Shown here piece by piece: positions 5,264-42,815 of a DNA stretch of 64,000 nucleotides. The notes below the pieces were generated by a model, which was not told the origin of the DNA, ran no database searches, and saw only the letters and a list, made by a program, of their open reading frames with translations. The stretch is from a virus, in IMG/VR virus record IMGVR_UViG_3300017783_000010, positions 5,724 to 69,723 of that record; one strand, given 5' to 3'. The first letter of the stretch is position 1. Every line of letters begins with the position of its first letter. Made by a program: the position numbers and the translations under genes.

Positions 5264-5281
5264 TATTCTTGCTCGTTAGCC

Positions 5282-5452
5282 TTAATTTTCTATGTGGTTA
5301 AAAATTAACTTGCAAATCCAAGCATTTTCAAACTCATACATACCACATACTAACCCTGCTTCTTCTTCTGTGTTGTAGTATATAATTTTTCCGTTTTTAT
5401 CTTTCATATAGTCCATATTTCTAAGGTCTATAATTACATATTTATCTTTCAT
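5282..5452 (-). CDS. Hypothetical protein (56 aa, not in ORF track)
   Basis: Manual translation MKDKYVIIDLRNMDYMKDKNGKIIYYNTEEEAGLVCGMYEFENAWICKLIFNHIEN*; co-oriented with neighbours. Confidence 0.6.
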   Translation of the reverse strand: MKDKYVIIDLRNMDYMKDKNGKIIYYNTEEEAGLVCGMYEFENAWICKLIFNHIEN

Positions 5453-5496
5453 ATTACTGTCCGTTATATGTAATTTAATGTTCTTTCGTTACATGA

Positions 5497-5877
5497 TTAG
5501 TATAATCCCGACTCATACGTACAAATATAATCTTGTAATAAATATTTAAAAGAGTTAACTTCATTAATATCCGAGGTATTGATAGCTTTCCAAAAGCTGT
5601 AGATAAGGTTTAGATCATGTCTGCCTGTCATATCATTTAATATAGCAAACCCTAGTATCGGATAGAAACTACGTTTTTCCTTAAAATGTGGAGTCAAAGC
5701 ACTAGCGTAGTGCAAGGCTTTCTCCAAGTCTTCCTTACCGTTTTTATAAGGATGCCTGATCAAATACTTGAAAAGATTGCCTTCATTAAATGACAGATTG
5801 TTATCATTAATGAAAACCACAGGCTGATACTGCATCTGATAATGTGTTCCTCCGATTTGTTTTTTAGTATCCATCAT
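5497..5877 (-). CDS. DUF3310-like phage protein
   Basis: QIGGTHY...FNEGNLFKYLIRHPYKNGKEDLEKALHY signature. Confidence 0.8.
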   Translation of the reverse strand: MMDTKKQIGGTHYQMQYQPVVFINDNNLSFNEGNLFKYLIRHPYKNGKEDLEKALHYASALTPHFKEKRSFYPILGFAILNDMTGRHDLNLIYSFWKAINTSDINEVNSFKYLLQDYICTYESGLY

Positions 5878-10629: not shown

Positions 10630-10968
10630 ATGCTAAAAAAGAAAATTAAGAAATACCAGTTTGATATTCTACAAGAGAATATACATATTCAGAATGATGC
10701 GCCTGTTGGAGCAGATATGAAGGTGTCTTATCGTAAAGAGCTAGAAAATTACCTTCATACTAATGGTATGACTATCAAACAGTTAAGTCAAAAATACACT
10801 AAAGAGCGTATGACAGCTCGTATGAGAGGGAGATTATTAACGGCTTATACTAAAGCTGTTCATATATATTCTCCTGTTGGAAGAAATGTATTAGCAGAGG
10901 AACTAGGAAAGACTGAAAGCCAATTAAACTCATTATTGAAGGCATTAAGAAACCGCAAAGTAAAATGA
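10630..10968 (+). CDS. Hypothetical protein, possible HTH DNA-binding
   Basis: C-terminal RNVLAEELGKTESQLNSLLKAL helix-turn-helix-like. Confidence 0.45.
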   Translation: MLKKKIKKYQFDILQENIHIQNDAPVGADMKVSYRKELENYLHTNGMTIKQLSQKYTKERMTARMRGRLLTAYTKAVHIYSPVGRNVLAEELGKTESQLNSLLKALRNRKVK

Positions 10969-12359
10969 GAATAAAGATAGATAACCTACATGGTATATGT
11001 GATTATACACATCCTAAATTTCAAGCACTGAGAGAAGAATATAAGGTAGCTAATCCTGATTATTGGAGAGCAGTAAAGATGTCCCCTTATGCTCAGAAGT
11101 ATTATTACTTCATTACTCAAAAAGGTAAGTTTAGTTTAGGGCATTTGCCCGCAATTGTGCGCTTATGCGATCAGCTAGACATCTCTATTGAGGTTGAGGA
11201 TACTAGATTGCATAAGCAAATATTTAAACCTTTCAGTAAGCAGCTAGGGGAGTATACCTTATATGACCATCAATATAAAGCATTACAGCTTTCTAGTAAT
11301 ACCTTGACTATTTCTGGTCAATATATACCCTATAATAGAGGTATATATAAGATGGCTACGAATAGTGGTAAATCCTTTATTATTGCAAGCAAATGCGTGC
11401 ATCTAAATGAAGGGCATAAAGCTGTAATATTTGTTCATACAGTAGACCTACTAAACCAGTTCTTTAAAACACTAAAGAATTTTGGATTAAATGTAGGCAC
11501 ATTTGGAGGTAAACATAAAAAGACTTCTGTATTTCTTGATTGTGATGTAATCATATCTACCTACAAATCTTATCTATCTTATCACACAAAATCTAGGGAT
11601 GTAAAAGCATTCACAAAGTCGGTAGATTTACTGATTGTAGATGAATGTCACAGAGCATCAGCAAAAGATTATGCTAGAACTATTAAACTTTTTAAAAATG
11701 CAACAAATTTTTATGGCTTTAGTGGTACACCATTCAAGAATGTGATATTAGCAGATAAAAACGTTCAAGGATTATTTGGAGATATCCTCATGGAGGTAAG
11801 TAATGAGGATATGCAAAAGATAGGTGTATCATTAACTCCTGTCGTAAAAATGTATGAAGTAGAATGCGATTATTTTTATTCTTATCAAGAATCTTATGAG
11901 AATAATATCGTATTCTCGCAAGCTAGAGTAGATAAGATGGCTCAATATATTAAACATAATCCAGACCGTCAAATACTAATCCCTGTTAAACGGCTAGATC
12001 ATGGTAAGTTTATATATGAGGCTTTACATAAAATTTGTGATTGTAGATTTCTTTCAGCTACTCACAAATTTAGAGACTATCTATTTGAGCAGTATAGTAA
12101 AAAGGAGTATCAAGTTCTCATTACTACGCTTGGTCAAGAAGGATTAAACTTGCCAATTGACGCATTAATTTATGCTAGAGCAGAAGAGTCGATTGTAAGC
12201 CTTCTTCAATATATAGGCAGAATATTAAGGCTAGAGGGCACTACTAAAAATATTGAGATTGTAGATTTCTATGATAAAGACAATAAAAACCTAGAGAAGC
12301 ATAGCAAGAAAAGACTTCAAATATACAATAAAGAAAAATTTAAAATAGAAAATAATTAA
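10965..12359 (+). CDS. Superfamily 2 DNA helicase (UvsW/T5 D10-like)
   Basis: LYDHQ, ATNSGKS, DECH, SGTP, EGLN, QYIGRILR. Confidence 0.9.
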   Translation: MRIKIDNLHGICDYTHPKFQALREEYKVANPDYWRAVKMSPYAQKYYYFITQKGKFSLGHLPAIVRLCDQLDISIEVEDTRLHKQIFKPFSKQLGEYTLYDHQYKALQLSSNTLTISGQYIPYNRGIYKMATNSGKSFIIASKCVHLNEGHKAVIFVHTVDLLNQFFKTLKNFGLNVGTFGGKHKKTSVFLDCDVIISTYKSYLSYHTKSRDVKAFTKSVDLLIVDECHRASAKDYARTIKLFKNATNFYGFSGTPFKNVILADKNVQGLFGDILMEVSNEDMQKIGVSLTPVVKMYEVECDYFYSYQESYENNIVFSQARVDKMAQYIKHNPDRQILIPVKRLDHGKFIYEALHKICDCRFLSATHKFRDYLFEQYSKKEYQVLITTLGQEGLNLPIDALIYARAEESIVSLLQYIGRILRLEGTTKNIEIVDFYDKDNKNLEKHSKKRLQIYNKEKFKIENN

Positions 12360-12434
12360 TAAAGGGTAATAACTTTAAAAACAAGCACTGCAGAGGTTAT
12401 TACTTATAAAAATTTTGTGGTGCGTTAATTTATT

Positions 12435-12653
12435 ATGGAAACATTACTTAAAATGCTAAATGTTATTTCTTGGATATGTGTAACTGGATGTCCGTTAGTA
12501 ATAGTAATAAAGGTATGTCTACAAAGCAAGTATGAAAACTCATTAGATGAAAAAATAGATATGCTAAAAGGTGTAAAAACTGTATACACACGTGGACTAT
12601 TAAAGTTGAGTATATTATTTGTAGTCGCGTTAGTCTATTTGATTGTGCGATAA
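12435..12653 (+). CDS. Cassette gene, two-TM membrane protein
   Basis: 72 aa; bracketed by ttgtggtgc / gcaccacaac. Confidence 0.65.
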   Translation: METLLKMLNVISWICVTGCPLVIVIKVCLQSKYENSLDEKIDMLKGVKTVYTRGLLKLSILFVVALVYLIVR

Positions 12654-12726
12654 TGCACCACAACGCTAAATGTAAAAAGCGTTTAGGAACGAAATGATTA
12701 GTTACATAATGTTATAAATTTTAATT

Positions 12727-12858
12727 ATGGATATAGAAAAGGAATTTGAAGAACTAAAAGAACTAATAAAAGACACTTACGAGTTTATGGATAGAGACAA
12801 ACTTGACAAGGCTTTAGAAAAACTTGAAAAAATAAGGGTAGACGTGATTGGCAAGTAA
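12727..12858 (+). CDS. Cassette gene, 43-aa hypothetical (not in ORF track)
   Basis: Manual translation MDIEKEFEELKELIKDTYEFMDRDKLDKALEKLEKIRVDVIGK*. Confidence 0.6.
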   Translation: MDIEKEFEELKELIKDTYEFMDRDKLDKALEKLEKIRVDVIGK

Positions 12859-12944
12859 ATGTTTGCTAACGGACGAGTACAAGGTGTCGTAGCGACCTAA
12901 ACAGCACGAAACATTGAATTATAAACAACTTAAATAGATACAAA

Positions 12945-13256
12945 ATGAACTTAATTAAAACACTTACTCGCTATGCACTTTGTACATTGTTAGTTGTCTG
13001 GGCGACTTCTTGCACGGACTCTCGTTTTAAATTACTGAACCGAAATAAAAACGTAGAAATAGGCGATGTTTATTTATATAGCCACGATTGGGATGAAGAA
13101 GACCCATTTGCTAAGATAGAAATAGACACAGTAAGGGTGATTGATGTAAAAGATGGTTATGTAAAATGGCTTTATAAATTAAGTGAAAAAGATAGTAGTT
13201 TTTATTTGAGTGGAAAACTAAAGTATTTTAAGCACAACATTAAGCCTTTCAACTAA
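12945..13256 (+). CDS. Cassette gene, putative lipoprotein
   Basis: Hydrophobic N-terminus ending in WATSC lipobox-like motif; start lies inside the upstream hairpin loop. Confidence 0.6.
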   Translation: MNLIKTLTRYALCTLLVVWATSCTDSRFKLLNRNKNVEIGDVYLYSHDWDEEDPFAKIEIDTVRVIDVKDGYVKWLYKLSEKDSSFYLSGKLKYFKHNIKPFN

Positions 13257-13353
13257 TGTTGAATCTATAAAGCGTGGCGACACGCACAGTATTAATTATT
13301 AACCTTTAACAAGTCCTAGCCATGATTTTATAGATAGTGTTAGGCACAGTTTT

Positions 13354-13593
13354 ATGAGATGGAAAGATAAAAATAATGACGGGTTTTATAAAGGTAAAAA
13401 CAAAGGGTTTTACTTTACTATATCACATGCAAGAGACTATGATGCTTTTTATGTTGTTGCATCCCATCAAAAGAAAGATATTAGATTAAACACTTTGTGG
13501 GAAAATAAGACTTTTAAAACATTTGAATTAGCAGAAGAGTTTTGTAAAACCTTTGACTATAGAAAACACAGATGTATAGGTGACAATACTTAA
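13354..13593 (+). CDS. Cassette gene, hypothetical
   Basis: 79 aa; bracketed by gttaggcaca / tgtgcctaac. Confidence 0.65.
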   Translation: MRWKDKNNDGFYKGKNKGFYFTISHARDYDAFYVVASHQKKDIRLNTLWENKTFKTFELAEEFCKTFDYRKHRCIGDNT

Positions 13594-13655
13594 TTGTGCC
13601 TAACGGTTTATGTATGAGCCGTTGAAATCTAATAAACTTAATAAAAAATTAAACA

Positions 13656-13946
13656 ATGAATAAAGCAAAAAGTAAATTAATAGAAGCTAAAAAATGGCTT
13701 ATACATTTTGTTATGGTGCGTATATTTTTAATAAGTACGCACAAACGCCAAAACTACTTAATAGATAAACACGCAAGTATGTTTTTAGGGTTACAGAACA
13801 TAGCAAAAAAGTACGATAATGACGGAGATGTTAGGACAGCAATGTACATTAGTAGTAAAAGCTACGAACATTTAAATTGGTTTGCTGAATACTGCGGAGT
13901 TTTGAATATAGACCAAGTTAAAAGGATGCGACAATATGCACCATAA
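13656..13946 (+). CDS. Cassette gene, hypothetical
   Basis: 96 aa; stop codon is the TAA of TAAC; start inside the upstream hairpin loop. Confidence 0.6.
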   Translation: MNKAKSKLIEAKKWLIHFVMVRIFLISTHKRQNYLIDKHASMFLGLQNIAKKYDNDGDVRTAMYISSKSYEHLNWFAEYCGVLNIDQVKRMRQYAP

Positions 13947-14005
13947 CGGATTACGGCTAAACTGCGTTGCCGAAGAAATGCAGTATCAATTAAACACATA
14001 AGATT

Positions 14006-14206
14006 ATGAGCAATGAAGTTTTAGCCGATGTTAGCTTTCCGTTATTCCAAGATTTATATGGTAGCTACGTTCAAATGGATGATAGATTTGAAACGGTGCA
14101 TATATGGAGTGAGAAACTAGCAATGAAAAACAAAGGTAGGTGGAAGCCATTATTAATTAGCAAGAAATTGTATGACCAAGAAAAAAAGCACTCTTGGAAT
14201 AATTGA
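14006..14206 (+). CDS. Cassette gene, hypothetical
   Basis: 66 aa; start at the loop/arm boundary of the upstream hairpin; gttagctt / aagctaac ends. Confidence 0.55.
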   Translation: MSNEVLADVSFPLFQDLYGSYVQMDDRFETVHIWSEKLAMKNKGRWKPLLISKKLYDQEKKHSWNN

Positions 14207-14337
14207 AGCTAACGGACGAGTGTATGAAAAAGTAGCCCATACATGGACGTTCGGAATTATTACAAAACTTAATTAGGCTATTTTTTATACACATTGTTAG
14301 CTTTTCGTTTGGAAATCTAGCACAAAACTTAATAGAA

Positions 14338-14628
14338 ATGAACAGTTTATCACACAAAAGTTATGGGGCAATTTATGTTAATAACCCTAAAGACATTAAA
14401 AAAGTAAAAGAAGTAATTAAAGAAATGGATGAGTTTGAATTTGACTATTTGCCATCAGAACTAATAAAGCCTTTTGCTGAATATCCTGCTGTTTGCTACA
14501 CACATAAATTCTCTGATTTAGACACAGATGATTTAACAGCAAAATGTTGGGCAAAAGGAATTATGATTTGGGTGTTTGACGCAAGAACGGAATATCCTAA
14601 AAATGCACTAAGCGAAAATGAAAGCTAA
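14338..14628 (+). CDS. Cassette gene, hypothetical
   Basis: 96 aa; gttagcttt / aaagctaac ends. Confidence 0.65.
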   Translation: MNSLSHKSYGAIYVNNPKDIKKVKEVIKEMDEFEFDYLPSELIKPFAEYPAVCYTHKFSDLDTDDLTAKCWAKGIMIWVFDARTEYPKNALSENES

Positions 14629-14663
14629 CATAGTATATAAGACATATAGCTGATATTTTTTAG

Positions 14664-14719
14664 GATTTGCTTGCAATTGCGCGCAAATCTTTTTAACTTG
14701 GCCTCATTAACTAATTAAA
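14664..14719 (+). promoter_or_regulatory. Promoter/operator module, repeated at 23219-23274
   Basis: gatttgcttgcaattgcg(c/a)gcaaatcttttt-aa(c/a)ttg...tcatta-ctaattaaa in both places directly upstream of genes. Confidence 0.6.
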
Positions 14720-14729
14720 AATATAAGAT

Positions 14730-14921
14730 ATGCTACGTTTAGTTGTTTTAGTAATTTATTGTAAGATGCAAGCATTTGCTTGTGGTAGTATTGAATCTCC
14801 TGATACGTGTATGGAGATGGTATATGATACTACTAAATATGTCGTATCAATAGATTCCTTTAAGTATACTAATTTTATGGAAGAGGGAGTTTGTTTTATT
14901 CATGTGGATACTTTAAAATAA
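14730..14921 (+). CDS. Hypothetical protein
   Basis: 63-aa ORF after the promoter module. Confidence 0.45.
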   Translation: MLRLVVLVIYCKMQAFACGSIESPDTCMEMVYDTTKYVVSIDSFKYTNFMEEGVCFIHVDTLK

Positions 14922-14930
14922 GATAAAATA

Positions 14931-16121
14931 ATGAAACAAGAAAAAATATTAAATGGGATTGCTTTCATTGAGATGGCTGTAGAAATATTAAAGCCCCGAT
15001 CATTAGAGCAAAAATGTAAAAAGGTATATACTAGAAACACCTATATTTCTTATGTGTTTCAATTATTATCCATTTTAACAGGATTAAGTTTTATAGGGTA
15101 TATAGGTAATGAACTTAAAGGAGTATTGTTTATCATATCTTCTTTAGTTTTATTCATTTTGCTTGCAATGATTGAGGCAAGTAAAAGAATACTAATAAAA
15201 GATATAGCTAAACTTTATTTTTCTGAAAATGAGATAAAGTATGTATCTTTATTTTTGTTGGTTATTATATTAGCTGCTTCTGCTAGTATTAGTTATGTGG
15301 GAGGCAGTAAAATACCTTCTGTGATTGTGTCAAGCCAGTCTATTGATTCAACTCAAGTAGCAGAGGTTATTCCTTCTATTCAACTAGACTATACTAGAAA
15401 TCAACTAGATTCAATAGCTAAGTCAATCAGAAAGCAAGAAGCGACTACATATAGAGGAAAAGTAGTTAGGACGGCTAACAATAATTTAACAATACTATAT
15501 GACCAACAATCAGAATATCAAAGTACTCTTTTAGAGTTAGAAAAGGAGCATCAAAAAAAGTTAGATGCTAGGAATCAAGCTTTAGCTGCTATAAAAGAAA
15601 CTAGAGATTTAAAAATAGAAGGTGTCGGATACATCTTTGGAGGAGTAGCTGTTTTTAGTGATATTATGTTAGTGTTTCTTTTATACTTTGCGTATAATTC
15701 CTTGAGAAAAGTTTATAAAAAACATCAAACAAGTACTATACTAAATGCTTATAATGTAACGTTAGAAGAAACGCAAGTACTTGCTAAAGTACCTGAAATC
15801 AAGGAGTTACATGAGCCAAAAGTAACGTTACAAGAAACGCTAGAAGAAAAAGTAACGTTACAAGAAACGCTAGAAGAAACGCAAGAAGAAAAAGTAGCGT
15901 TACAAGAAACGCAAGAAGAAAAAGTAAAAACGGAAGAGGCTACTATAAAAAATGTTCTAAAGATGCCTAAAGCTAAAACTAAAAAAGTCGAAGTAGTAAA
16001 AGGACATTCTAAACAAAGGCGTTGTGATAACTGCGGAGCATCTTATGAATATAAAAGACCAAGTTCGAGGTTTTGTAGTTCAAAATGTAGATTAGAAAAC
16101 CATCAAAATAAAAATAAGTAA
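14931..16121 (+). CDS. Multi-TM coiled-coil protein with C-terminal Cys4 Zn-finger
   Basis: About 4 hydrophobic segments, TLQETLEE repeats, CDNC...FCSSKCR. Confidence 0.65.
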   Translation: MKQEKILNGIAFIEMAVEILKPRSLEQKCKKVYTRNTYISYVFQLLSILTGLSFIGYIGNELKGVLFIISSLVLFILLAMIEASKRILIKDIAKLYFSENEIKYVSLFLLVIILAASASISYVGGSKIPSVIVSSQSIDSTQVAEVIPSIQLDYTRNQLDSIAKSIRKQEATTYRGKVVRTANNNLTILYDQQSEYQSTLLELEKEHQKKLDARNQALAAIKETRDLKIEGVGYIFGGVAVFSDIMLVFLLYFAYNSLRKVYKKHQTSTILNAYNVTLEETQVLAKVPEIKELHEPKVTLQETLEEKVTLQETLEETQEEKVALQETQEEKVKTEEATIKNVLKMPKAKTKKVEVVKGHSKQRRCDNCGASYEYKRPSSRFCSSKCRLENHQNKNK

Positions 16122-18247
16122 TGAAAGATATACCTCATAAAATTATAATGGATTTAGTAGACTTAGAGAAAATATTGGATTCTTGTGTAAAGTCTAAGTT
16201 ATTTTGTTGCGATTTTGAAACTAATACTGTAAATCCTTTTGATGATGATGCCTTAGCTACAATATTAGGATTTACTAATAGAGAGGATTTAATTTATATT
16301 CTACCTATTTATAATGTAGAGGGTACTGTTAGCGAAGAGTTTGTCAAAAAATCTTTTGACCTTATTGCATCAAAGATATTATCAAATTCGAATGTTAGGG
16401 TAATCGCACATAATCTTCAATATGAGTTACATTTCTTTAGATTATGTATGAATAATTATGACTTTGACTTTAAATGTGAGTTGCATGATACGATGGTTAT
16501 GAGTCATTTTATGAACGAAAATCGTAGGCATGGCCTAAAAGGCTTGGTAAATACATTCATAAAATCATATGCAGGCTATGAAAGCGAGTTAAGTCAGTAT
16601 ATGACTGAGAAGAATGATTACTATAATATAAAGTTAGAGCATCTAGCTAGATATTGTGCTATTGATGTTTATGTTACCTTAAAACTTTTTGTGATGTTCG
16701 AGAAAAGGTTGAAAGGAGATGATGAGCATAAAAGGTTATGGGAATGTTATAGTAAAATTAAGATGCCTGCATTGCTCGCTCTTAATGAGGCTACCTCAAA
16801 GGGGATGCATATAGATTTAGAGTTGCTTGCAACTACAATAGAAAAGGTAACAAAAATACAAGAGCAGAAATATGAGGCTATACTCTCTTCTAATGTTCTT
16901 CAAGAATTTCAGTTTGCTAAACGTAAAGAAGCATATGATGCTAGGGTATCTTTATGTAGGGCTAAGATGAAGGAATATAAAGAGCAAGGAAAGAGGGCTT
17001 TTTATAAAAGATGGTCTACTAATTTAGATAAAGCTAATAATAAGCCTAGTGAGGAATGGTATTCTATAAATTTGAATAGTCCTGCTCAGATGAAAGAATT
17101 AATATATACTCATCGTAAAGGATTTAATTATTCTTCTTTAGGTTTATCTAGTGAAACAACAGATTCGTATCAACTAATGGAAATATACCGAATTTTTCCA
17201 TATAATACTTTTTTAGTTAATTTGCTTGCTTATAGGACAGTGAGTAAAATACTAAATACTTATCTGATAGGTATAAGAGATAGGCTAGATGGAGATAAAA
17301 TACATGGTAGGTTTAACATTAATGGTACAAAAACAGGCCGCATATCAAGTTCAGACCCAAATTTACAAAATTTAATTTCTCGTTCATCTATTGATGATGC
17401 GGACGTTCAAGATACTATCAAAATAGTAAAAAAGCTATTTATTGCTCCACAGGGGTATGATTTCGTACAGATTGATTATGCCACTATGGAGTTGAGAATT
17501 GCGGCGGCTTTTGCGGATGAAGGTAATATGATTAAAGCCTTTGCTAACGGTGAGGATTTACACGCTAAAACGGCGGCTAATGTTCTTGAGGGAGTCTCTG
17601 TAGAGGAATTTAATACTTATGAGAAGTCAAAAAGAAAAAAGATCAGATTCAAGGCGAAAGCCGTTAATTTTGGATTTCTTTATGGGATGAGTGCAGAGTC
17701 TTTTAAGGACTATGTTAAGAATATGACTGGACAAATTGTAAGTAGCGAAGAGGCTGTTCATATTAGAAATAAGTTTTTTAAAACTTATTCTAATCTTACC
17801 GATTGGTACACTAAGAGTAGCTCCTTTGTAACAAAATATTCATTTGTTAGGACATTCTTTGGTACTAAGAGAAGAGTAGGCTACTTATTTAATACTACTG
17901 AGAAGTATAAGATAAAAAGTCTCTCAGTAAACGCCCCAGTTCAAGGTACTAGCGGGTTATGGACTCTGGCGGCTATTGCTGAAATATATAAAGAATTTAA
18001 AAATAATGATTCGGTGGTGATAGCTAACACTATACATGATAGTGTTATATTTTATGTGAAAAGAGATCAAGACTATAATAGAAATCTACTAAGGATTCGT
18101 GAAATTATGGAATGGCCTTCGGTAGTAGAGGATTATCCTGCTGTAAAAACATATAAAGAAAACTTGAGGAAAATAGGATTAAAAGTAGATTTAGAGGTTT
18201 CTTCAAAGTCTTGGGGGGATTTAAAAGAAATTGACTTTCCCTCTTGA
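16121..18247 (+). CDS. polA: DNA polymerase family A with 3'-5' exonuclease
   Basis: DFET, HN, YCAID exonuclease motifs; TGRISSSDPNLQN, DYATMELR, KAVNFGFLYG, IHDS. Confidence 0.95.
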   Translation: MKDIPHKIIMDLVDLEKILDSCVKSKLFCCDFETNTVNPFDDDALATILGFTNREDLIYILPIYNVEGTVSEEFVKKSFDLIASKILSNSNVRVIAHNLQYELHFFRLCMNNYDFDFKCELHDTMVMSHFMNENRRHGLKGLVNTFIKSYAGYESELSQYMTEKNDYYNIKLEHLARYCAIDVYVTLKLFVMFEKRLKGDDEHKRLWECYSKIKMPALLALNEATSKGMHIDLELLATTIEKVTKIQEQKYEAILSSNVLQEFQFAKRKEAYDARVSLCRAKMKEYKEQGKRAFYKRWSTNLDKANNKPSEEWYSINLNSPAQMKELIYTHRKGFNYSSLGLSSETTDSYQLMEIYRIFPYNTFLVNLLAYRTVSKILNTYLIGIRDRLDGDKIHGRFNINGTKTGRISSSDPNLQNLISRSSIDDADVQDTIKIVKKLFIAPQGYDFVQIDYATMELRIAAAFADEGNMIKAFANGEDLHAKTAANVLEGVSVEEFNTYEKSKRKKIRFKAKAVNFGFLYGMSAESFKDYVKNMTGQIVSSEEAVHIRNKFFKTYSNLTDWYTKSSSFVTKYSFVRTFFGTKRRVGYLFNTTEKYKIKSLSVNAPVQGTSGLWTLAAIAEIYKEFKNNDSVVIANTIHDSVIFYVKRDQDYNRNLLRIREIMEWPSVVEDYPAVKTYKENLRKIGLKVDLEVSSKSWGDLKEIDFPS

Positions 18248-19010
18248 CTTTTACTATAAAATACATTATATTTGTAAAAGATTTTTTAACCAAAATAAGT
18301 ATATATATATGTCATTTTTAGAAGCATTTCAAACGCAAGAACCGGACAGAGACTTTAATTTTTTAGCAGGCAATAAACTAACTGAACAAGGAACTGACAT
18401 TATAATCAGTAATGTTTGTTTAGGCAATAAACCCTTAAAAAAGGTTGTATTTTGGGCGGAAAAATCCCCTTATATCAGCCAAAAAACATTCAAGGAACAA
18501 TGCCCCTTAGATGATGAGTTACTCGCCTTTTACAAGGCTTATCCGAAGGATTCTCCAGAAAGAGCAGCCCTGAAAAGCCAAAACAGGACTTTCTCAAAAA
18601 AGCAGCCTACCGACTTAGTTGTGTATATAATCAATGGGGATGAAGTAGATAATACCCCTGTGGTATTAAGTTGTGGTTCCGCTTTGTCTGATGCTATCTC
18701 TTCTATTTTAAGTAGCCCCCCAAAAGGCAGTAATGCGGAGGATTTTATTTTAAGCGCCAATGGTCAAGAGATATACCCGATAACGATTAGTAAATCGGGA
18801 ACAGGATTGAATACCAAATATCAAGCGCAAATGCATCTCACTAAATTTGAGTTTGATTCTCCAGAGGCCATCGAATCGGCAAAGGGGGTGGATTTATTAG
18901 GTATAGCTAGAGCAGAAGCTAATAGAAAGCCTATTTATGATGCTTTAGCTTATTTCAAGGACACGGTGGTTCCTACCTGTGTAGCAGGCGAAGTAAGCGA
19001 CAATATTTAG
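18231..19010 (+). CDS. Probable ssDNA-binding / replication accessory protein
   Basis: ITISKSGTGLNTKY motif seen in phage SSB-like proteins; between PolA and SbcD; likely start ATG 18309. Confidence 0.5.
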   Translation: MTFPLDFYYKIHYICKRFFNQNKYIYMSFLEAFQTQEPDRDFNFLAGNKLTEQGTDIIISNVCLGNKPLKKVVFWAEKSPYISQKTFKEQCPLDDELLAFYKAYPKDSPERAALKSQNRTFSKKQPTDLVVYIINGDEVDNTPVVLSCGSALSDAISSILSSPPKGSNAEDFILSANGQEIYPITISKSGTGLNTKYQAQMHLTKFEFDSPEAIESAKGVDLLGIARAEANRKPIYDALAYFKDTVVPTCVAGEVSDNI

Positions 19011-19090: not shown

Positions 19091-20038
19091 ATGAAAGTAT
19101 TAGTTTTTTCTGACCTTCATGTGAATAAATATAAAAGATTTAGTGATGGGGACAGTAGATTAGATGACTGTTTGAATATACTTAAACAAGTATATAAAAC
19201 AGCTAATGATCATCAAATTGAAAATATATTATTTTGCGGAGATTTTTTTGATACTCAGTACTCTATTAATACTAGGGTATTGACTAAAACTCTGGAAGTA
19301 ATGCAAAAAATGTCGGAGAAATACCCTGAAATTTATATGTTCGGTATTACTGGCAACCATGACCTTGCTACAAGAGAGGGAGATAAATATAGTTCTGCGA
19401 TAAGTATGTTTGATACAATAACCAGTATCAATTTCTTGTCTTTAGATTATAAAGCCGCAAGACTAGGAAAGGATGTTAGAGTAATAGGTATCCCATACAA
19501 AAATTCAGAAATAGAATTTAGTAACGAACTAGATGAGATCGTAAGAAATGAGGATGTATCAGATGCAATTTTATTAGTACATCAAACACCTAAAAAATTC
19601 CATTATACAGGTGAATGCGATGAAAAAGACCCAAGGCTTGATCCCTTTATTAAAGTATTTTCTGGACATATACATGATAGGGATAACTACAACTATAACT
19701 TTACGATGGTAGGCAATCCTTTGCATAGAGATTTATCAGACGCAGGGGTAGAAAAAGGATGCTTAATCTTTGATACAGACACTAAAGTAATAGATTTTAT
19801 ATCTTTTGAGGATTTTTATCCTTCTTTTGTAAAAGTTGAGCAAGGGCAAGAGGATAATTCTTCTGCAAGAGATTTTGTAGTTACCGTAACATCGAATATA
19901 GAGAATGAAAAATTCGATGAAGGGTTAAGTTACTCTGATACGTCTAACCTACAAAATCTGGTGGTACAGTATGTAGAAAATGAGTTACATAGAGATGACT
20001 CAGATTTAGTAATTAAAATCGGAAAAGAATGTATATAA
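19091..20038 (+). CDS. SbcD/Mre11-like metallophosphoesterase nuclease
   Basis: FSDLH, CGDFF, GNHD, SGHIH; adjacent to SbcC-like gene. Confidence 0.9.
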   Translation: MKVLVFSDLHVNKYKRFSDGDSRLDDCLNILKQVYKTANDHQIENILFCGDFFDTQYSINTRVLTKTLEVMQKMSEKYPEIYMFGITGNHDLATREGDKYSSAISMFDTITSINFLSLDYKAARLGKDVRVIGIPYKNSEIEFSNELDEIVRNEDVSDAILLVHQTPKKFHYTGECDEKDPRLDPFIKVFSGHIHDRDNYNYNFTMVGNPLHRDLSDAGVEKGCLIFDTDTKVIDFISFEDFYPSFVKVEQGQEDNSSARDFVVTVTSNIENEKFDEGLSYSDTSNLQNLVVQYVENELHRDDSDLVIKIGKECI

Positions 20039-21795
20039 AATTTAAGGAGTTAGAACTTCTAAACTTTAGGAGTTTTAAAGGTACACACAATTTTACCTTT
20101 TCTGATAAGGGGATTACAATAATAAATGGTAGTAATGGCTCAGGTAAATCCTCATTGATAGAGGCGATGTATTGGACTCTTACTGGTAAATTAGTTAAAC
20201 AAGGGAAGATAGATAGTGCTATATCAGAAGGCTGTAAAAATATGGCTACTTCTTTGGTAATTTCTAAGGGGAAAGAGGATGTTCGTATTGTTAGGTCTTA
20301 TGGCTCTAAAAAGTCTTTGCAAGTATATATAAATGAAGTTGCATCTACACATCTACATAAGAAAGATATACAAGAAAGTATTTATTCATTATTGAATATT
20401 ACCGAAAATAGTATATCAAATACTTTATTCTTTAACCAGAACAGTAAAAGATTATTAGATGCTTCACAAACGGAAAGAAAAAATGTATTAAGTGAGTTGT
20501 TTAACTTGCAATTACTTGAGGCAGCTAAAGATAAGGCTAGATTAAGGTTAAAGGAGTATCAAAAAGCTTTAACAGAGAATGAATATATTATATCTTCTGT
20601 TAAAGCCAAACTGACCTCTGCTAAAAGTAATCTTATCACTACTAATAGCCATAATGAACGTATATTAAGTCAGAAGGAAGGTAGAATTAACGACGCTAGA
20701 AAAGAACTTAATGAATTTGAGTTCGGATTAACTTCTATAGTTGCTCCTGAAATGCCTAGTAAGGTTACTACTCCAACTTTACATGATAGTAGTACTCTTA
20801 TAGCTACTTATAAAGATGATATTGCCTCTATAAAGGCTGAGATTAGATATGATAAAACTAATTTAGATAGGAAGCAGCAAGAATTAAAATCTAGCGATTC
20901 TATTCAAGTATGTAATATTTGCTGTGAGCAGATTAGTAATCAGGCTACTATTGATATTATACGTAATGAGATAAGTACATTAGAGCTAAAAGTACAAAAC
21001 AATATAGATAATCTTAAGTCTAAGGAGTTAGAACTAACTAAAGCTTCTAACAAGCAGGAAGAGTACGATAAACAGCACTCCGAGTATCAATCTTATCTTA
21101 TACGATTAGACAGATATAATGATAAGTTAGATGTATATTCGGATAGAATAGCTAATCAAGAGGCTAGAAGAAAAAACTTACAAGATAGGATAGAAAAGAT
21201 TAAGCAAGAGGATACTTTATTGTTAGATACTATCAAAATCAAGAATGCTGTTTTTGATTTAGGAAAGACGCTAGAGAATTTAGATAAAAAACATAAAGAG
21301 ATACAGTCTAATCTTGAGGCCTCTGAATTTTGGGTAAAAAAAGGATTTACTGGTAATGGCTTACTTGCTTACATTTTAAAAAGTAAAGTTAATGAGTTAA
21401 ATACTATAATTTCTTCCTACTCATACATTTTAGATATTCATGTTAGATTCGAGGTTATAACAGAGGGTAAAACAAAACAGATACAGACGATTACGACTAT
21501 CAATGATATTGATAGAGAGTATGAATGGTTATCTGGGGGAGAAAAAGCTAGAGCTAACTTACTAGTGTCACTAGCATTAAGCAAGCTTCTTTCAGGCACT
21601 ATGAATGCTAATTTGTTAATATTTGATGAAGCATTCTCAGCTTTAGATGAAAAAGGATACGAGGGTATAATTACATTTATATCCGAAATAGCTAAAGATA
21701 AGGAGGTAATTATTATTACTCACAACCTAGACATTGCAGAAGGTCGTAAAGTTCTAATTGAAAAAATTAATAATAAATCAAAAATAAGTAGATAA
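20029..21795 (+). CDS. SbcC/Rad50-like SMC ATPase
   Basis: GSNGSGKS, coiled coil with CNIC hook, LSGGE, FDE, ITH. Confidence 0.92.
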   Translation: MYIKFKELELLNFRSFKGTHNFTFSDKGITIINGSNGSGKSSLIEAMYWTLTGKLVKQGKIDSAISEGCKNMATSLVISKGKEDVRIVRSYGSKKSLQVYINEVASTHLHKKDIQESIYSLLNITENSISNTLFFNQNSKRLLDASQTERKNVLSELFNLQLLEAAKDKARLRLKEYQKALTENEYIISSVKAKLTSAKSNLITTNSHNERILSQKEGRINDARKELNEFEFGLTSIVAPEMPSKVTTPTLHDSSTLIATYKDDIASIKAEIRYDKTNLDRKQQELKSSDSIQVCNICCEQISNQATIDIIRNEISTLELKVQNNIDNLKSKELELTKASNKQEEYDKQHSEYQSYLIRLDRYNDKLDVYSDRIANQEARRKNLQDRIEKIKQEDTLLLDTIKIKNAVFDLGKTLENLDKKHKEIQSNLEASEFWVKKGFTGNGLLAYILKSKVNELNTIISSYSYILDIHVRFEVITEGKTKQIQTITTINDIDREYEWLSGGEKARANLLVSLALSKLLSGTMNANLLIFDEAFSALDEKGYEGIITFISEIAKDKEVIIITHNLDIAEGRKVLIEKINNKSKISR

Positions 21796-23198: not shown

Positions 23199-23283
23199 GT
23201 TAATAAAATATTTTTTAAGATTTGCTTGCAATTGCGAGCAAATCTTTTTAAATTGCAGTCATTATCTAATTAAACTAAATATT

Positions 23284-26089: not shown

Positions 26090-26197
26090 TTTCGAGTTTG
26101 TTCAGTAATGCAGCATAACGTTCAATGTATCGCACGTTTTAATGTGCTATACATAGTGTTAGGTTTTAGTAGAAATTATTAAAAATTATTAAAAATT

Positions 26198-26335
26198 ATG
26201 TATTACGCAGAAAAAATAATAAACGGGATATTACATTGTAAGCACACCCCTAACGGAAAGTGGAATATTAAATGTTACAGGGGTGATATTGATAAACCCG
26301 AAAAACAAACGGTGATACTTATTGATAAGTGGTAG
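26198..26335 (+). CDS. Cassette gene, 45-aa hypothetical (not in ORF track)
   Basis: Manual translation MYYAEKIINGILHCKHTPNGKWNIKCYRGDIDKPEKQTVILIDKW*. Confidence 0.55.
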   Translation: MYYAEKIINGILHCKHTPNGKWNIKCYRGDIDKPEKQTVILIDKW

Positions 26336-26449
26336 CTTGCGCATAACGCCTACGGCTATGAATTGAAGTCGTGTAACAAATGTTCGATTCAAAGAAATAA
26401 CCTTAACAAAGGCTTTTATTTATAGCCATTGTTAGCAAATTTTAAAATT

Positions 26450-26641
26450 ATGATTAAAGAAATTGAAACATTGATTGATGTAGAAGTAAGCATAAACAGA
26501 AGTATTTTAATCTACGAACTTCTTGGGTATTTTGGTGATAGACTTCCAGAAGATGTACAAACTGAAATGAGAGAACGGGCAGTAAAAGAATCCAAACAAG
26601 TTGATAAAATGACCAATAAGGTGGTTAAGCGGTTGCAATAA
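26450..26641 (+). CDS. Cassette gene, hypothetical
   Basis: ATG 26450; gttagcaa / ttgctaac ends. Confidence 0.6.
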   Translation: MIKEIETLIDVEVSINRSILIYELLGYFGDRLPEDVQTEMRERAVKESKQVDKMTNKVVKRLQ

Positions 26642-26748
26642 TTTTTATTGTTGCTAACGGTTTGGCTATGTGCTGAACGTAGAGTAACGGAGTTTTGCAT
26701 ATAGGTAATGTTATATGCTTTTTATTAACAGATTTAAAGTAAAATATT

Positions 26749-26931
26749 ATGAAAAGATTTAATTTAAAATACAACGTAGGAAAAGTAAAGTATTTAGTTT
26801 CTTACCATAATGGAGAAAAGAAACATAAAGATGGAAGCGACTTCTTTGATATTGCTTACTTTAAAAATAAAGTAAAACTAAATGCTTTTACGAATGAATT
26901 ACTAAAACAAGGGTACGTTAATTGCATATAA
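26749..26931 (+). CDS. Cassette gene, hypothetical
   Basis: 60 aa; gttatatgc / gcatataac ends. Confidence 0.65.
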   Translation: MKRFNLKYNVGKVKYLVSYHNGEKKHKDGSDFFDIAYFKNKVKLNAFTNELLKQGYVNCI

Positions 26932-27041
26932 CGGAATCGTATAAGATTTCGTGCGAGGTACGAGGATGAATTTTATACAGTGTTACCCATCTGTATTTTT
27001 AAAAATGGCAATTAGTGAGGAACGAACTAAAATTAAAGAGA

Positions 27042-27638
27042 ATGAGTAAGAAATATAATATTATTTATGCTGACCCAGCTTGGGAACAAAAAGCAGGTAG
27101 ACCATTAAGTGGTGGCTACAAAAAAGAAAATGGTGTGCAAGTATTTAACCCTAAAAGCGATAAATCTGCAGACTTACCTTATAGCACAATGAAGTTTGAG
27201 GATATAGTAAACTTACCTATTAAAAAACTAACTGATGATAACTGTCATTTGTATTTATGGGTTACTAATAAGTATTTAATGAAAGCTGAACAAGTTATTA
27301 AAGCTTGGGGTTTTAAATACTCTACTACTTTAGTTTGGTGTAAGAAACCAATAGGTAGTGGAATGGGGGGAACATTTAAAGTGTCTACAGAATATTTAAT
27401 ATTTGCTACTAAGGGTAAGGTTAATGAATTAGTAAGAGAAAAAGTAAATGGCACTTGGTTTGAAGAAAAAAGACAATATGTAAATGGTTATCCTTGCCAT
27501 TCTAAAAAACCAGATTTCTTTTATGAATTAATAGAGAAAGTATCTAAAGGTAAAAAACTTGAATTATTTTCAAGAAATGAGCGTAAAGATTGGGATGCTT
27601 GGGGAAATGAAATAGAAAATTCAATTACGATTGAGTAA
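27042..27638 (+). CDS. MT-A70 family adenine methyltransferase (cassette gene)
   Basis: KYNIIYADPAW, LYLWVT, WGFKY, HSKKP, LELFSR, WDAWGNE; ATG 27042 preferred over GTG 27015. Confidence 0.9.
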   Translation: MSKKYNIIYADPAWEQKAGRPLSGGYKKENGVQVFNPKSDKSADLPYSTMKFEDIVNLPIKKLTDDNCHLYLWVTNKYLMKAEQVIKAWGFKYSTTLVWCKKPIGSGMGGTFKVSTEYLIFATKGKVNELVREKVNGTWFEEKRQYVNGYPCHSKKPDFFYELIEKVSKGKKLELFSRNERKDWDAWGNEIENSITIE

Positions 27639-27789
27639 GCACGTATGAGTGGTTGCCATTTTTAAAAATACAGATGGGTAACGGTTTGAATAAGATTAGT
27701 AGCGCAACGCTACACACCTTAATGGTTGCACCTGCCCTATTTGCGCTATTAATTTTATTTGTTGTTATAGGGCGTTTTATACTTGAATT

Positions 27790-27993
27790 ATGAATATTAA
27801 TGAAGTTTTTAAAAAATACCCAAACGAAGAACCAAGCTATAATGGCGTTAACTATCTAACGCTAGTTGATGTAAATGGTAATATTAGTTATGCAATCACA
27901 TATTTTAATGATAACGCAGAATTTGAACCTAAATGGGGTAAGGTAGTAGCATTTGCAGACAAACAACCAAGTGATATTTTAAATGCCCTATAA
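27790..27993 (+). CDS. Cassette gene, hypothetical
   Basis: 67 aa; gttatagggc / gccctataac ends. Confidence 0.65.
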   Translation: MNINEVFKKYPNEEPSYNGVNYLTLVDVNGNISYAITYFNDNAEFEPKWGKVVAFADKQPSDILNAL

Positions 27994-28038
27994 CGTAATT
28001 GTATAACAAAAGTTACGTGAAAATAATTACTGTATTTA

Positions 28039-28069
28039 TTTGGTATGTATAAAATATTTACTATCTTTG
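28039..28069 (+). promoter_or_regulatory. Bacteroidota-type sigma70 promoter inside a cassette hairpin loop
   Basis: TTTG (28039-42), 19 nt, TATCTTTG (28062-69) matches -33 TTTG / -7 TAnnTTTG. Confidence 0.65.
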
Positions 28070-28096
28070 TTAAACAATAACTTAAAAACAGATATT

Positions 28097-28294
28097 ATGA
28101 GTACTACAGAAAAGACATTACAAGCCTTTACAAAAGAAGTAAACCCGCTAAATGAAAACTGCATCTGCATTTTTGAACAAAGAGCAGTTAGAAAGCATTT
28201 ACTATTCCAAATTGATAAAGCAAATTTTGAAAGCGATAACGAGTTTTTAAATGCAGTTGATTTTATACTAATTTCATTAAATAAGAACTTGTAA
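28097..28294 (+). CDS. Hypothetical protein inside hairpin loop
   Basis: ATG 28097 downstream of promoter; 65 aa. Confidence 0.6.
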   Translation: MSTTEKTLQAFTKEVNPLNENCICIFEQRAVRKHLLFQIDKANFESDNEFLNAVDFILISLNKNL

Positions 28295-28443
28295 TGGCGA
28301 CTAAAAAAGTAACAATTACAATCACAGACGAAATGCACCAAAAAGGAAACGACTTATCTGTTTTGGTGCTTGGGAATGAAAACTTTAGTGGCTTAATAAG
28401 CTATATGATTAATAAACTTCATAAAGAAACGAATAGCAAGTAA
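28294..28443 (+). CDS. Ribbon-helix-helix-like small DNA-binding protein (not in ORF track)
   Basis: MATKKVTITITDEMHQKGNDLSVLVLGNENFSGLISYMINKLHKETNSK*; alternating beta strand followed by two helices; TAATG coupling. Confidence 0.55.
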   Translation: MATKKVTITITDEMHQKGNDLSVLVLGNENFSGLISYMINKLHKETNSK

Positions 28444-28654
28444 TTTTTGTTATACGTTGTTATGTGCGCTTTTTGCGCTTGTAGTGGTGGTTTTAATGCA
28501 CTAGTCTAGTCTAGCGAAAATACGTTGGCAATGAGGATTGTGAAACGAACTGCAACAAACTTAAACCACCATTACACATAACATAGTATATCAGCTATAT
28601 GTCTGATATACTCTCCATTCATAAGCTATTATTTTTTTTTTTTTAAAAATTAGT

Positions 28655-29536: not shown

Positions 29537-29551
29537 TTTGGACGCCACTAT

Positions 29552-36674: not shown

Positions 36675-37259
36675 CTAATTTAGTGACTCGATTATCACTA
36701 GCATCTCCGATACGTGAGCATCAATATCGAAATTACCTCTTCGGGCTATGATATTGTCAGGTGAACCTGCATAGCTATTATGTTTTGACCGATTATCTTT
36801 TGAGGATAGATACTGTAGATTAGTATAGTGGCAACAGACCTTTACGTGATCTTCATTAGATAAATCGAACCAACTAAACGGAATTATATGGTCAATATGT
36901 AAGTCTGTTAAATCTTCAGCACTTGGACACCCGTTCATGTGCCAAAAATCGTTAGCAGAGCAGCCTACTAATTTTATTTTATCAGTATTTTGATAGTTAT
37001 ATAATAGTTTAGTGCTAATGCTTCTTACCCACTGCTTAGCATTTCTTTCCCTTCTTTGTAATTCCTTATAACTATTATTATATTCTTCTAAAATAGCTAA
37101 CATCTCTTTCTTAGTATACCTTTGTAATAGTTTTATCACTTCATCTCTGCTATATTCCCTCAACTTTTCTACGATACCACTATATTTAGATGTATCTGAT
37201 TTCTTGTTTTTACCTTTTAAACTGCTCATATTATGTAACTTTAAAATTAAAAAGGCCAC
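36675..37259 (-). CDS. HNH-family endonuclease
   Basis: HIDHIIP...HYTNLQYLSSKDNRSK. Confidence 0.8.
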   Translation of the reverse strand: MAFLILKLHNMSSLKGKNKKSDTSKYSGIVEKLREYSRDEVIKLLQRYTKKEMLAILEEYNNSYKELQRRERNAKQWVRSISTKLLYNYQNTDKIKLVGCSANDFWHMNGCPSAEDLTDLHIDHIIPFSWFDLSNEDHVKVCCHYTNLQYLSSKDNRSKHNSYAGSPDNIIARRGNFDIDAHVSEMLVIIESLN

Positions 37260-40808: not shown

Positions 40809-41157
40809 CGCAAATGAAACGGTAAACGTATATAAAGGTAGCGTTACTAACGTTTACGATGCAGATACTATAACGTTAGACTTGCGTTTAGGATTTGGTA
40901 TCGTTTTACAGAACTTCAAGGTGCGTTTAGCTAGAATAGATGCTCCCGAAATTAGAGGAGAAGAACGAGAGAAAGGTATAATAAGTAGAGATGCTTTGAG
41001 AGGGTTATTAAGTAATCGAGATGTAGAGGTATTGTTCATAGAAAAAGGTAAATACGGTAGATATATCTGTGAGATTATGGTAGAGCACCACGATCAGTTT
41101 ATAAATGTTTCTGATTGGTTGTTAGATAAGAACTTAGCAGATGTGTATACATACTAG
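40798..41157 (+). CDS. Thermonuclease (SNase-like)
   Basis: VYDADTI, VRLARIDAPE, GKYGRYI. Confidence 0.85.
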   Translation: MRVNANETVNVYKGSVTNVYDADTITLDLRLGFGIVLQNFKVRLARIDAPEIRGEEREKGIISRDALRGLLSNRDVEVLFIEKGKYGRYICEIMVEHHDQFINVSDWLLDKNLADVYTY

Positions 41158-41545
41158 AATGGGACAAGAGGATTTAAAATGGGTTAGTGCTGAAAGGGGT
41201 ATTTATATATTTTGGATAGGTACATATTTTTACATAGGCCATTCTACAAATATTAGGAGAAGATTAAGAAGACATCTATCTATGATGAAGAACGGCAAGC
41301 ACTATAACAGACATATACAAAAGGCATGGGATTATGATAGGAATTTTGAGTTTAGTATTTTACATTCTTTTGATTTTGAAGCAAGCAAGGAATTACTTTA
41401 TCATTGGGAGCAAAAGTTCTTAGATTTATTTTCAGCACACTTAAACTGTCTAAATGTAAGTAAGATAGCAAATTCAGTGCATTATAAGATTAGGAGGCAG
41501 AAAAAGGCAAGGAAAGGTATTATTGACCAGAGAGATTTTATATGA
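41141..41545 (+). CDS. GIY-YIG endonuclease
   Basis: GIYIF...FYIGHS...RRLRRH...EQKFLD. Confidence 0.8.
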   Translation: MCIHTRMGQEDLKWVSAERGIYIFWIGTYFYIGHSTNIRRRLRRHLSMMKNGKHYNRHIQKAWDYDRNFEFSILHSFDFEASKELLYHWEQKFLDLFSAHLNCLNVSKIANSVHYKIRRQKKARKGIIDQRDFI

Positions 41546-42792: not shown

Positions 42793-42815
42793 AAAAAAAA
42801 TATTTTATAATAATT

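Follow-up and report, generated by a model that had tools for sequence, protein, structure and literature searches.

The PeSLs of T4-type phages, which Arbiol et al. 2010 and Comeau et al. 2014 are said to have described, are reportedly direct repeats that combine a promoter with a terminator stem-loop and act through homologous recombination. Integrons are viewed as devices of bacteria, and reports of CALINs in phages (at least two close attC sites with no integrase nearby) have so far treated them as rare curiosities. In the parts of Qi 2023 (PMC9892861) considered here, 17 CALINs, usually of 2–4 sites, are reported from 10,705 phage genomes, and of six attC sites taken from three virulent phages the integrase IntI1 recombined five, P12002L_attC2 among them, into attI1, joining the phage sites at G|TTRRRY. 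Here we analyse a 64,000-nt stretch of viral DNA (the window), bases 5724–69723 of the 69.7-kb IMG/VR virus record IMGVR_UViG_3300017783_000010 (G000), in which seven co-oriented plus-strand open reading frames (ORFs) of 43–103 aa span 12435–14628 (array 1). Array 1 probably represents seven integron-type mobile cassettes whose attC-like sites stand without an integrase, that is, a CALIN, in an uncultured and probably virulent marine Bacteroidota phage; seven sites lie within 2.3 kb, and no intI gene stands beside them as it does in a complete integron.

Nine plus-strand sites follow one plan: TAAC, 5–7 unpaired nt (often GGnnnn), an inner stem of 7–11 pairs starting G(T/C)TAT, a loop of ~10–90 nt, the return stem, 2–5 nt (often nnT) and GTTA, with CAAC in S1 and TAAT in S3 as variants. 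This is the spacer form (AAC, gap and stem, then stem, gap and GTT) that a preliminary description of the locus had proposed; that description had also called the stem sequences unrelated, which was incorrect, as the stems have the common core G(T/C)TAT...ATA(G/C)C. Both the inverted AAC/GTT core and the imperfect hairpin, with its R stem, unpaired central spacer, L stem and variable loop, are those of an integron attC site. The longer gap lies on the 5' side of the plus strand in 9/9 sites, so that the site is asymmetric and has a strand; the spacers of canonical attC sites are less asymmetric than the 5–7 versus 2–5 nt seen here. A loose version of the structural pattern occurs 16 times in the whole genome against ~8 in shuffles (1/40 shuffles reach 16), and since this is an enrichment of only ~2-fold the pattern is no detector by itself.

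Within array 1, on the plus strand throughout, S1 (12654–12720) runs from CACAAC to GTTATAAA, and S2 (12867–12992) reads TAAC, GGACGA, GTACAAGGTG, loop, CACTTTGTAC, ATT, GTTA, with 9/10 stem pairs. S3 (13254–13343) is made up of TAAT, GTTGA, ATCTATAAA ... TTTATAGAT, AGT and GTTA; S4 (13601–13713) of TAAC, GGTTT, ATGTATGAGCC ... GGCTTATACAT, TTT and GTTA (10/11 pairs); S5 (13944–14033) of TAAC, GGATTA, CGGCTAAA ... TTTAGCCG, AT and GTTA (eight pairs); and S6 (14210–14299) of TAAC, GGACGA, GTGTATGAAAAAGTAGCC ... GGCTATTTTTTATACAC, ATT and GTTA (11/12 pairs). Folding of the spacers, suggested earlier as a check, gave z values of −2.0 for S1 (12654–12709), −2.3 for S3 and −3.3 for S6. A CAAC at 13250 was considered as R'' of S3 and rejected, the TAAT at 13254 suiting both the spacing and a contig break described below better. 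At the 5' edge, directly after the stop codon of a helicase gene, lies a degenerate site, S0 (12366–12403), a short hairpin of GTAATAAC, 22 nt and GTTATTAC. The array-terminal element (14627–14694) begins AAC-ATA-GTATAT... and continues into a hairpin (14664–14689) and a T run; the half-site AAC-A(T/A)(A/G)-GT(A/G)TAT closes all five arrays of G000 and of its relative G001. The terminator scan did not call the hairpin at 14664–14689, for which the label terminator is a reading of the sequence, and promoter-like matches in the promoter scan were no commoner than in shuffles. Rfam gave no match at the gathering threshold across the whole window, nor at E values up to 1 in 12300–14800.

All seven genes of the preliminary description, and every pair of inverted ends that it listed, are present in the sequence. 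Cassette 1 (12415–12664) has the inverted ends TTGTGGTGCGTTA and TAATGCACCACAA around a hydrophobic 72-aa ORF (12435–12653), TTGTGGTGC(GTTA) at 12415–12427 pairing with 12651–12663 at 12/13 positions (13 nt, 92%). Cassette 2 (12727–12870; ORF 12727–12858, 43 aa) ends in TTTGCTAAC and has no matching left end. Cassette 3 (12945–13257; ORF 12945–13256, 103 aa, with the lipoprotein-like leader MNLIKTLTRYALCTLLVVWATSC recognised by eye from the translation) pairs GTTAGTTG at 12989–12996 with CAACTAAT at 13250–13257 (7/8). The ends of cassette 4 (13339–13604), GTTAGGCACA ... TGTGCCTAAC, enclose a 79-aa ORF (13354–13593), and GTTAGGCACA(GTT) at 13339–13351 matches 13592–13604 with 10 perfect pairs. 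For cassette 5 (13656–13947; ORF 13656–13946, 96 aa, with an alternative start at 13713 inside GTTATGG) GTTATGGTGCGTAT at 13710–13723 pairs with 13934–13947 at 13/14 positions (14 nt, 93%). Cassette 6 (14006–14213; ORF 14006–14206, 66 aa) ends in GTTAGCTT at 14030–14037 and AAGCTAAC at 14206–14213, which form eight pairs, and ~20/23 positions further inward are complementary by eye. Cassette 7 (14296–14629), with GTTAGCTTT ... AAAGCTAAC around a 96-aa ORF (14338–14628), has nine perfect pairs between 14296–14304 and 14621–14629. The ORFs called for cassettes 3, 5 and 6 take in the left arm and the 3' half of the spacer: their called start codons fall in the loop, which makes coding sequence of both GTTA and the 3' stem. 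The loop and 3' arm of S2 encode the start and signal peptide of ORF3, and the ATG of ORF6 sits in the loop of S5. Searches of Pfam and PHROGs gave no family above cut-off for the seven array-1 ORFs or for three ORFs of array 2.

Array 2 (26109–28612, plus strand) is the cleaner of the two, with sites at 26109–26167, 26344–26434, 26648–26719, 26922–26991 and 27679–27768. Its cassette for an MT-A70 methyltransferase (26982–27682) is enclosed by a perfect 30-bp inverted repeat (26982–27011 with 27653–27682) that begins GTTA and finishes TAAC, the longest own-end match seen. An ORF-less cassette (28459–28582) follows, and then the terminal element. ORF-less cassettes, at this position and at 66069–66162 of G001, are hairpins of 94–124 nt within GTTA...TAAC, their ends matching over 8–10 bp.

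Across both window arrays, own-end repeats reach 8 bp or more in 10 of the 13 cassettes, whilst the outer flanks of one and the same site pair over at least 8 bp at only one of 12 sites. The window contains 12 perfect inverted repeats that are anchored on GTTA, span at least 8 bp and have arms 100–500 nt apart, where 200 dinucleotide shuffles gave 4.9 ± 2.2 (0/200 reach 12); two short regions account for eight of them, four in array 1 (13.3–14.7 kb) and four at 26.4–28.6 kb. The earlier claim that ends match those of their own cassette and not of the neighbour is thus borne out, and the matching is better than in shuffled sequence. The claim that most genes are bracketed by their own ends stands for 10/13 cassettes, with the correction that in cassettes 3, 5 and 6 the left arm lies within the ORF. 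Pairing between the bases that follow GTTA and those that precede the TAAC at the end of the same cassette means that circularisation would restore a single long hairpin.

The sites are not confined to this phage. GTDB genomes contain a 16-mer of the window site at 26655 (TAAC, gap and stem start) in at least 120 stretches, most of them from Bacteroidota. In the chromosome of a Bacteroidales metagenome-assembled genome (MAG; G002) there are 71 near-identical copies on one strand between 2,556,175 and 2,626,955, a 71-kb array, of which 45 are exact, 23 have one mismatch and three have two; a second, small array lies at 1.31 Mb. The large array ends ~0.5 kb from a gene for a 383-aa tyrosine recombinase co-oriented with the cassette ORFs (array and gene together, G002 C1 2,556,175–2,628,583). 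The top NCBIfam model for this protein is XerA, 'tyrosine recombinase/integron integrase' (192.7 bits, cut-off 220), the integron-integrase model TIGR02249 gives 178.5 bits (cut-off 265), XerD and XerC score lower, and the nearest PDB structures are XerA and VchIntI4 (Vibrio IntI4). Two more genomes have the same layout, a 384–393-aa homologue followed by co-oriented ORFs with the sites on the opposite strand, and in all five Bacteroidota genomes searched no integrase exceeded the curated TIGR02249 cut-off.

A covariance model, R1, was built from an alignment of 30 bacterial sites, with no phage sequence used. AAC and GTT are invariant in these sites, paired cells make up 92.4%, and double changes occupy 72 cells where shuffled alignments gave 27.8 (0/500 shuffles as high), with covariation at 7/10 pairs of the L stem; the proposed structure of the bacterial sites is thus supported by covariation. 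The top five R1 matches in the window are all on the plus strand and all inside the two arrays: 26648–26719 (E 2.4e-8), 26109–26167 (E 1.7e-6), 27679–27768 (E 2.5e-5), 26922–26991 (E 6.6e-4) and S1 at 12654–12720 (20.4 bits, E 0.019). Weaker matches were obtained at 13594–13630 (E 0.55), covering the start of S4 only, at exactly 13254–13343 for S3 (E 0.92) and at exactly 14210–14299 for S6 (E 4.4). R1 penalises long loops (90–110 nt), and it also misses the ~150-nt sites of G002 at E values up to 0.05. Array 2 therefore passes this test clearly, and array 1 passes on structure and context and only marginally on score. The window sites belong to the same family as the sites of Bacteroidota chromosomal arrays that lie next to an Xer/IntI-like tyrosine recombinase.

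The same 16-mer is found in at least 119 IMG/VR contig stretches, and 71 distinct complete sites were recovered from IMG/VR loci, most of them followed on the same strand by a short leader and ATG. Where an ORF begins in the loop, the return stem is translated at many IMG/VR sites as ...KALHI(A/G)xV. Elsewhere, R1 matches four sites in G001, two in Polaribacter phage P12002S, three in P12002L and one in Cellulophaga phage phi12:1; the sites of these isolated phages flank methyltransferase genes. The methyltransferase ORFs of P12002S (L134 3229–3993) and phi12:1 (L266 1489–2292) share 88.8% DNA identity, with homology confined to the ORF, and that of phi12:1 has its own site and the ends GTTATGCA/TGCATAAC. 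Own-end matching is a property of the whole site family. We took the 16 nt before TAAC, searched upstream for GTTA plus their complement and counted a match when it ran 4 nt or more past the core; this was so at 46 of 119 viral sites against 4.9 expected, and at 38 of 116 bacterial sites against 3.2, the expectation being obtained by swapping the 16-mers between loci.

Comparison with relatives indicates that cassettes turn over. The flanks of array 1 are 88–90% identical to G001 on both sides, yet at this locus the window's 2.26 kb is replaced in G001 by 1.15 kb of small, unrelated ORFs, with no cassette in common; homology stops at 12363, just past the helicase stop, and resumes at 14626, the T of the last TAAC. 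In Logan contigs, 13345–13604 recurs with 0 differences in a contig from another study (run X10), where the array-terminal element comes directly after TAAC, and in an X10 contig the match begins at 13254, with 13254–13353 preceded by unrelated sequence. Run X5 contains 13601–13949 with two differences, within a 667-nt contig otherwise unlike the window, and also 12877–12997 (S2 and the signal-peptide start) joined to different sequence after 12997. The contig breaks at 13254 and 13604 fall at TAA(T/C), and the recurrence of cassettes in other contigs defines the recurring unit as a site plus its downstream ORF, from just past one AAC to the next; window parts not covered by Logan contigs carry no meaning in this comparison. 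Between P12002S and P12002L, which share 99% identity in the upstream flank of the junction, P12002L site 1 equals the P12002S site-1 flank up to GCAGGTAACGT (TAACGT) and then equals P12002S site 2, so that one junction of a cassette-sized difference, the only junction of this replacement that was aligned, maps to a shared 6-nt core. The shared 4–6 nt set the resolution of crossover positions, and within it the crossovers agree with G|TT of R' (AA|C in the complementary strand), where phage attC sites and attI1 were joined by IntI1. The earlier proposal that relatives would differ at the AAC/GTT junctions accordingly holds for the breaks at 14626, 13254 and 13604 and for the P12002S/L core, and fails for the break at the helicase stop and for a whole-array indel considered below.

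Phage and bacterial cassettes differ in orientation. In the 330 nt upstream of TAAC, coding lies on the motif strand at 75 viral loci, on the other strand at five and is undecided at 39, whilst at bacterial loci the corresponding counts are 19, 59 and 38, some of the 19 being small MAG contigs with phage-like sites; the bacterial orientation was confirmed in G002, G003 and G005. Phage cassettes are therefore inverted relative to bacterial ones, the site preceding its ORF and being readable through in one frame. Neither PF00589 nor PF01797 (Y1 transposase) has a match in G000, and no homologue of the bacterial array recombinase was found in G000, G001 or 974 kb of viral loci, save one weak unrelated match.

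The reading of array 1 as integron-type cassettes draws on features that were observed directly: the anatomy, the family membership, the own-end pairing, the turnover between relatives and the positions of the junctions. Several observations weigh against it. Pfam and PHROGs searches of the larger ORFs revealed no recombinase in the 69.7-kb record, which is perhaps incomplete, or in G001; with none in record or relative, array 1 is a CALIN and not a self-contained capture system. Beyond S1, R1 scores in array 1 are poor (E 0.55–4.4 for three sites, with S2 and S5 unlisted). The own-end match of cassette 2 is only 4 nt, in line with the poorly matching ends earlier noted for the 12727 gene, and one cassette of array 2 lacks matching ends. 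The left break against G001 falls at the helicase stop, where there is no clear site, and neither excision junctions nor circles were seen in the Logan contigs (contigs, not reads) aligned to the window. P12002L_attC2 is likely one of the three R1 matches in P12002L. Identical ends enclose different ORFs in G000 and G001 (GTTATATGC/GCATATAAC and GTTATAGGGC/GCCCTATAAC), which simple cassette movement does not account for. Finally, the array at 59551–61509 that is present only in G001 lies between copies of a ~70-bp hairpin-plus-promoter-like direct repeat, a PeSL-like boundary, and such a repeat flanking a whole-array indel points to homologous recombination. These last two observations, together with the X5 contig that joins S2 and the signal-peptide start to different sequence and with the change of ORF behind a conserved site and leader, suggest that homologous recombination and some other cassette-building process act beside site-specific exchange. 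Of the gene-capture reading in the preliminary description, the attC-like character is upheld by family, end matching and turnover, the system is not self-contained, and the unit is reversed, site first and then ORF.

It is unlikely, in our judgement, that the hairpins are instead portable regulatory elements and that the genes are shuffled by PeSL-like homologous recombination with no site-specific recombinase, although the whole-array indel between terminator/promoter-like direct repeats would fit, as would the Mre11/Rad50-like, SSB-like and endonuclease VII-like proteins encoded by the phage. The same explanation would also cover the retention of a site and 5' untranslated region (UTR) while the ORF changes from the start codon on (window 26653–26754 versus G001 66157–66257, 86%), a situation mirrored in many IMG/VR contigs, where the same site and UTR stand ahead of different ORFs. 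Homologous recombination does not, however, produce cassette-specific inverted ends (10/13 here, 46/119 family-wide), the P12002S/L junction lies in a 6-nt core shared by otherwise different sites, and the same sites adjoin a tyrosine recombinase in bacterial arrays; moreover, the spacers are not direct repeats of one another, as PeSLs would be, and the terminator scan called no plus-strand terminator within them. Improbable, too, is that the cassettes are inert relics, captured once from a host integron-like array and inherited vertically, their differences reflecting ordinary deletion or replacement. A phage without an integrase, aligned contigs without joints and the degenerate ends seen in cassette 2, in S0 and in the TAAT of S3 are all compatible with decay. 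Against that, phages ~88% identical have no cassette in common at the array 1 locus, cassette units recur in other contexts and unrelated metagenomes with 0–2 differences, the 30-bp repeat around the methyltransferase is still perfect, and phages and bacteria consistently place the ORF in opposite orientations with respect to the site, so phage cassettes are not simple copies of host cassettes.

Pairing might alternatively operate in RNA, the 5' and 3' ends of each ORF pairing in a polycistronic transcript and the spacer hairpins serving as processing or stability elements. The sites are transcribed together with the ORFs, mismatches in the inner stem are often G-T on the plus strand, and one conserved position is G-U in 20 of the 30 bacterial sites; but in bacteria the site and the ORFs occupy opposite strands, a difference that a role in the transcript would not survive, no Rfam family matches, and the right arm overlaps the last codons and stop, so that ribosomes would melt it, all of which makes this explanation very improbable. 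Hairpin-guided single-strand transposons (IS200/IS605 or REP/RAYT-like), or elements resembling miniature inverted-repeat transposable elements with terminal inverted repeats, would share with these cassettes the hairpin sites with a conserved tetranucleotide and the inverted ends on each unit. That origin is extremely improbable given that no Y1 transposase match was found in the phage, that the inverted ends vary between units, which is unexpected for one transposase, and that the bacterial arrays adjoin an Xer/IntI-like tyrosine recombinase and not an HUH enzyme.

Under the integron-type reading, a cassette would consist of a folded recombination site followed by a small ORF, and exchange would take place in the AAC/GTT core on the 5' side of the site in the ORF sense, equivalent to the canonical integron G|TT on the other strand. 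The catalyst is probably a host enzyme and would be an Xer/IntI-like tyrosine recombinase of the kind adjoining bacterial arrays, acting on single-stranded or folded phage DNA during infection, and the conserved array-terminal half-site would be the primary insertion site. More tentatively, marine Bacteroidota phages may keep an inverted cassette pool of their own, in which the site comes first and may encode the start codon, N-terminus or lipoprotein signal peptide, with unrelated phages swapping cassettes through the host array recombinase during infection and entry of new cassettes taking place at the 3' half-site of each operon.

Array 1 sits between an SF2 helicase gene (10965–12359) and a block leading to a family A DNA polymerase (16121–18247). 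CheckV estimated completeness at 50% for G000 and 100% for the 66.6-kb G001, the sole close relative, which is 84–90% identical in conserved blocks; helicase and PolA protein searches for relatives led to one contig only. The PolA of the nearest isolated phage is 27% identical, and blastn of region 10900–16500 against isolated phages gave no match. Mre11/Rad50-like, SSB-like and endonuclease VII-like proteins are encoded at 19091–21795, 18231–19010 and 36675–37259 (minus strand). Such proteins have hairpins, single strands and branched DNA as substrates, and the folded sites could be processed by them. A promoter-like direct repeat of ~80–160 bp has seven copies in the genome (25743–25880, 28640–28800 and at 29551, 31144, 32367, 33122 and 34180) and brackets array 2; G001 has one copy. 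The ~2-kb array at G001 59551–61509 is missing from the window at 23200–23280. A further variable spot lies by minus-strand genes, where 5267–5524 of the window corresponds to 1.9 kb in G001 (41058–42969) with two minus-strand sites, one of them 75% identical to S6.

The findings suggest that a whole guild of marine phages swaps accessory genes (orphan methyltransferases, small membrane proteins and lipoproteins) through the same folded sites in a phage-specific orientation, and cassette exchange could lie behind some of the ORFan turnover seen in the hyperplastic regions of phages. They also expose a Bacteroidota array recombinase that curated integron-integrase models miss, and the system is testable in culture, since site-carrying Polaribacter and Cellulophaga phages are available. 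Set beside PeSLs as described above, the present units differ in having their own inverted ends and junctions in a 4–6-nt core, whilst the array boundaries of the window carry a repeated hairpin-plus-promoter-like element, as PeSLs do. The accounts of PeSL cassettes in T4-type phages considered here likewise describe hyperplastic regions of small ORFs without assigned function, with repeated stem-loop bounds that differ between close relatives (PMC2839356, PMC4122927).

Sedentary chromosomal integrons, such as those with Vibrio VCRs, have several features in common with these arrays in the parts of Cury et al. 2016 (PMC4889954) considered here: the R''...AAC / GTT...R' core; a central gap that stays unpaired, with L boxes and a variable loop; mutually matching cassette ends; extended arrays whose sites are nearly identical; and exchange at G|TT. 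Unlike sedentary and inverted-integrase integrons as set out there, the phage has no intI and its ORFs occupy the strand opposite to that of the site. Asymmetry of the central gap (6 versus 3–4 nt) is a further difference, and the recombinase of the bacterial relatives falls below curated integron-integrase cut-offs and is co-oriented with the cassettes. Open journals, without their supplements, yielded a single paper on integron components in phages, PMC9892861, and no account of the inverted cassette design, of end matching in phages, of the spread through viromes or of the Bacteroidota array recombinase. The phage CALINs of PMC9892861, in the parts considered, resemble the window in having small co-oriented ORFs and orphan DNA methyltransferases between attC sites in lytic phages with no integrase, and P12002L, which was tested there, carries three R1-detected sites; as phage CALINs were published in 2023, one of them in a Polaribacter phage with sites of the same family, this kind of system is not new. 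Those parts of PMC9892861 hold no account of cassette-specific end matching, of turnover, of a Bacteroidota-type family or of ORFs downstream of or inside the site. By comparison, the window has at least two arrays with 13 cassettes, the exact 16-mer recurs in no fewer than 119 stretches of IMG/VR contigs, and what appears to be new is the inversion of ORF orientation, with the site ahead of the ORF.

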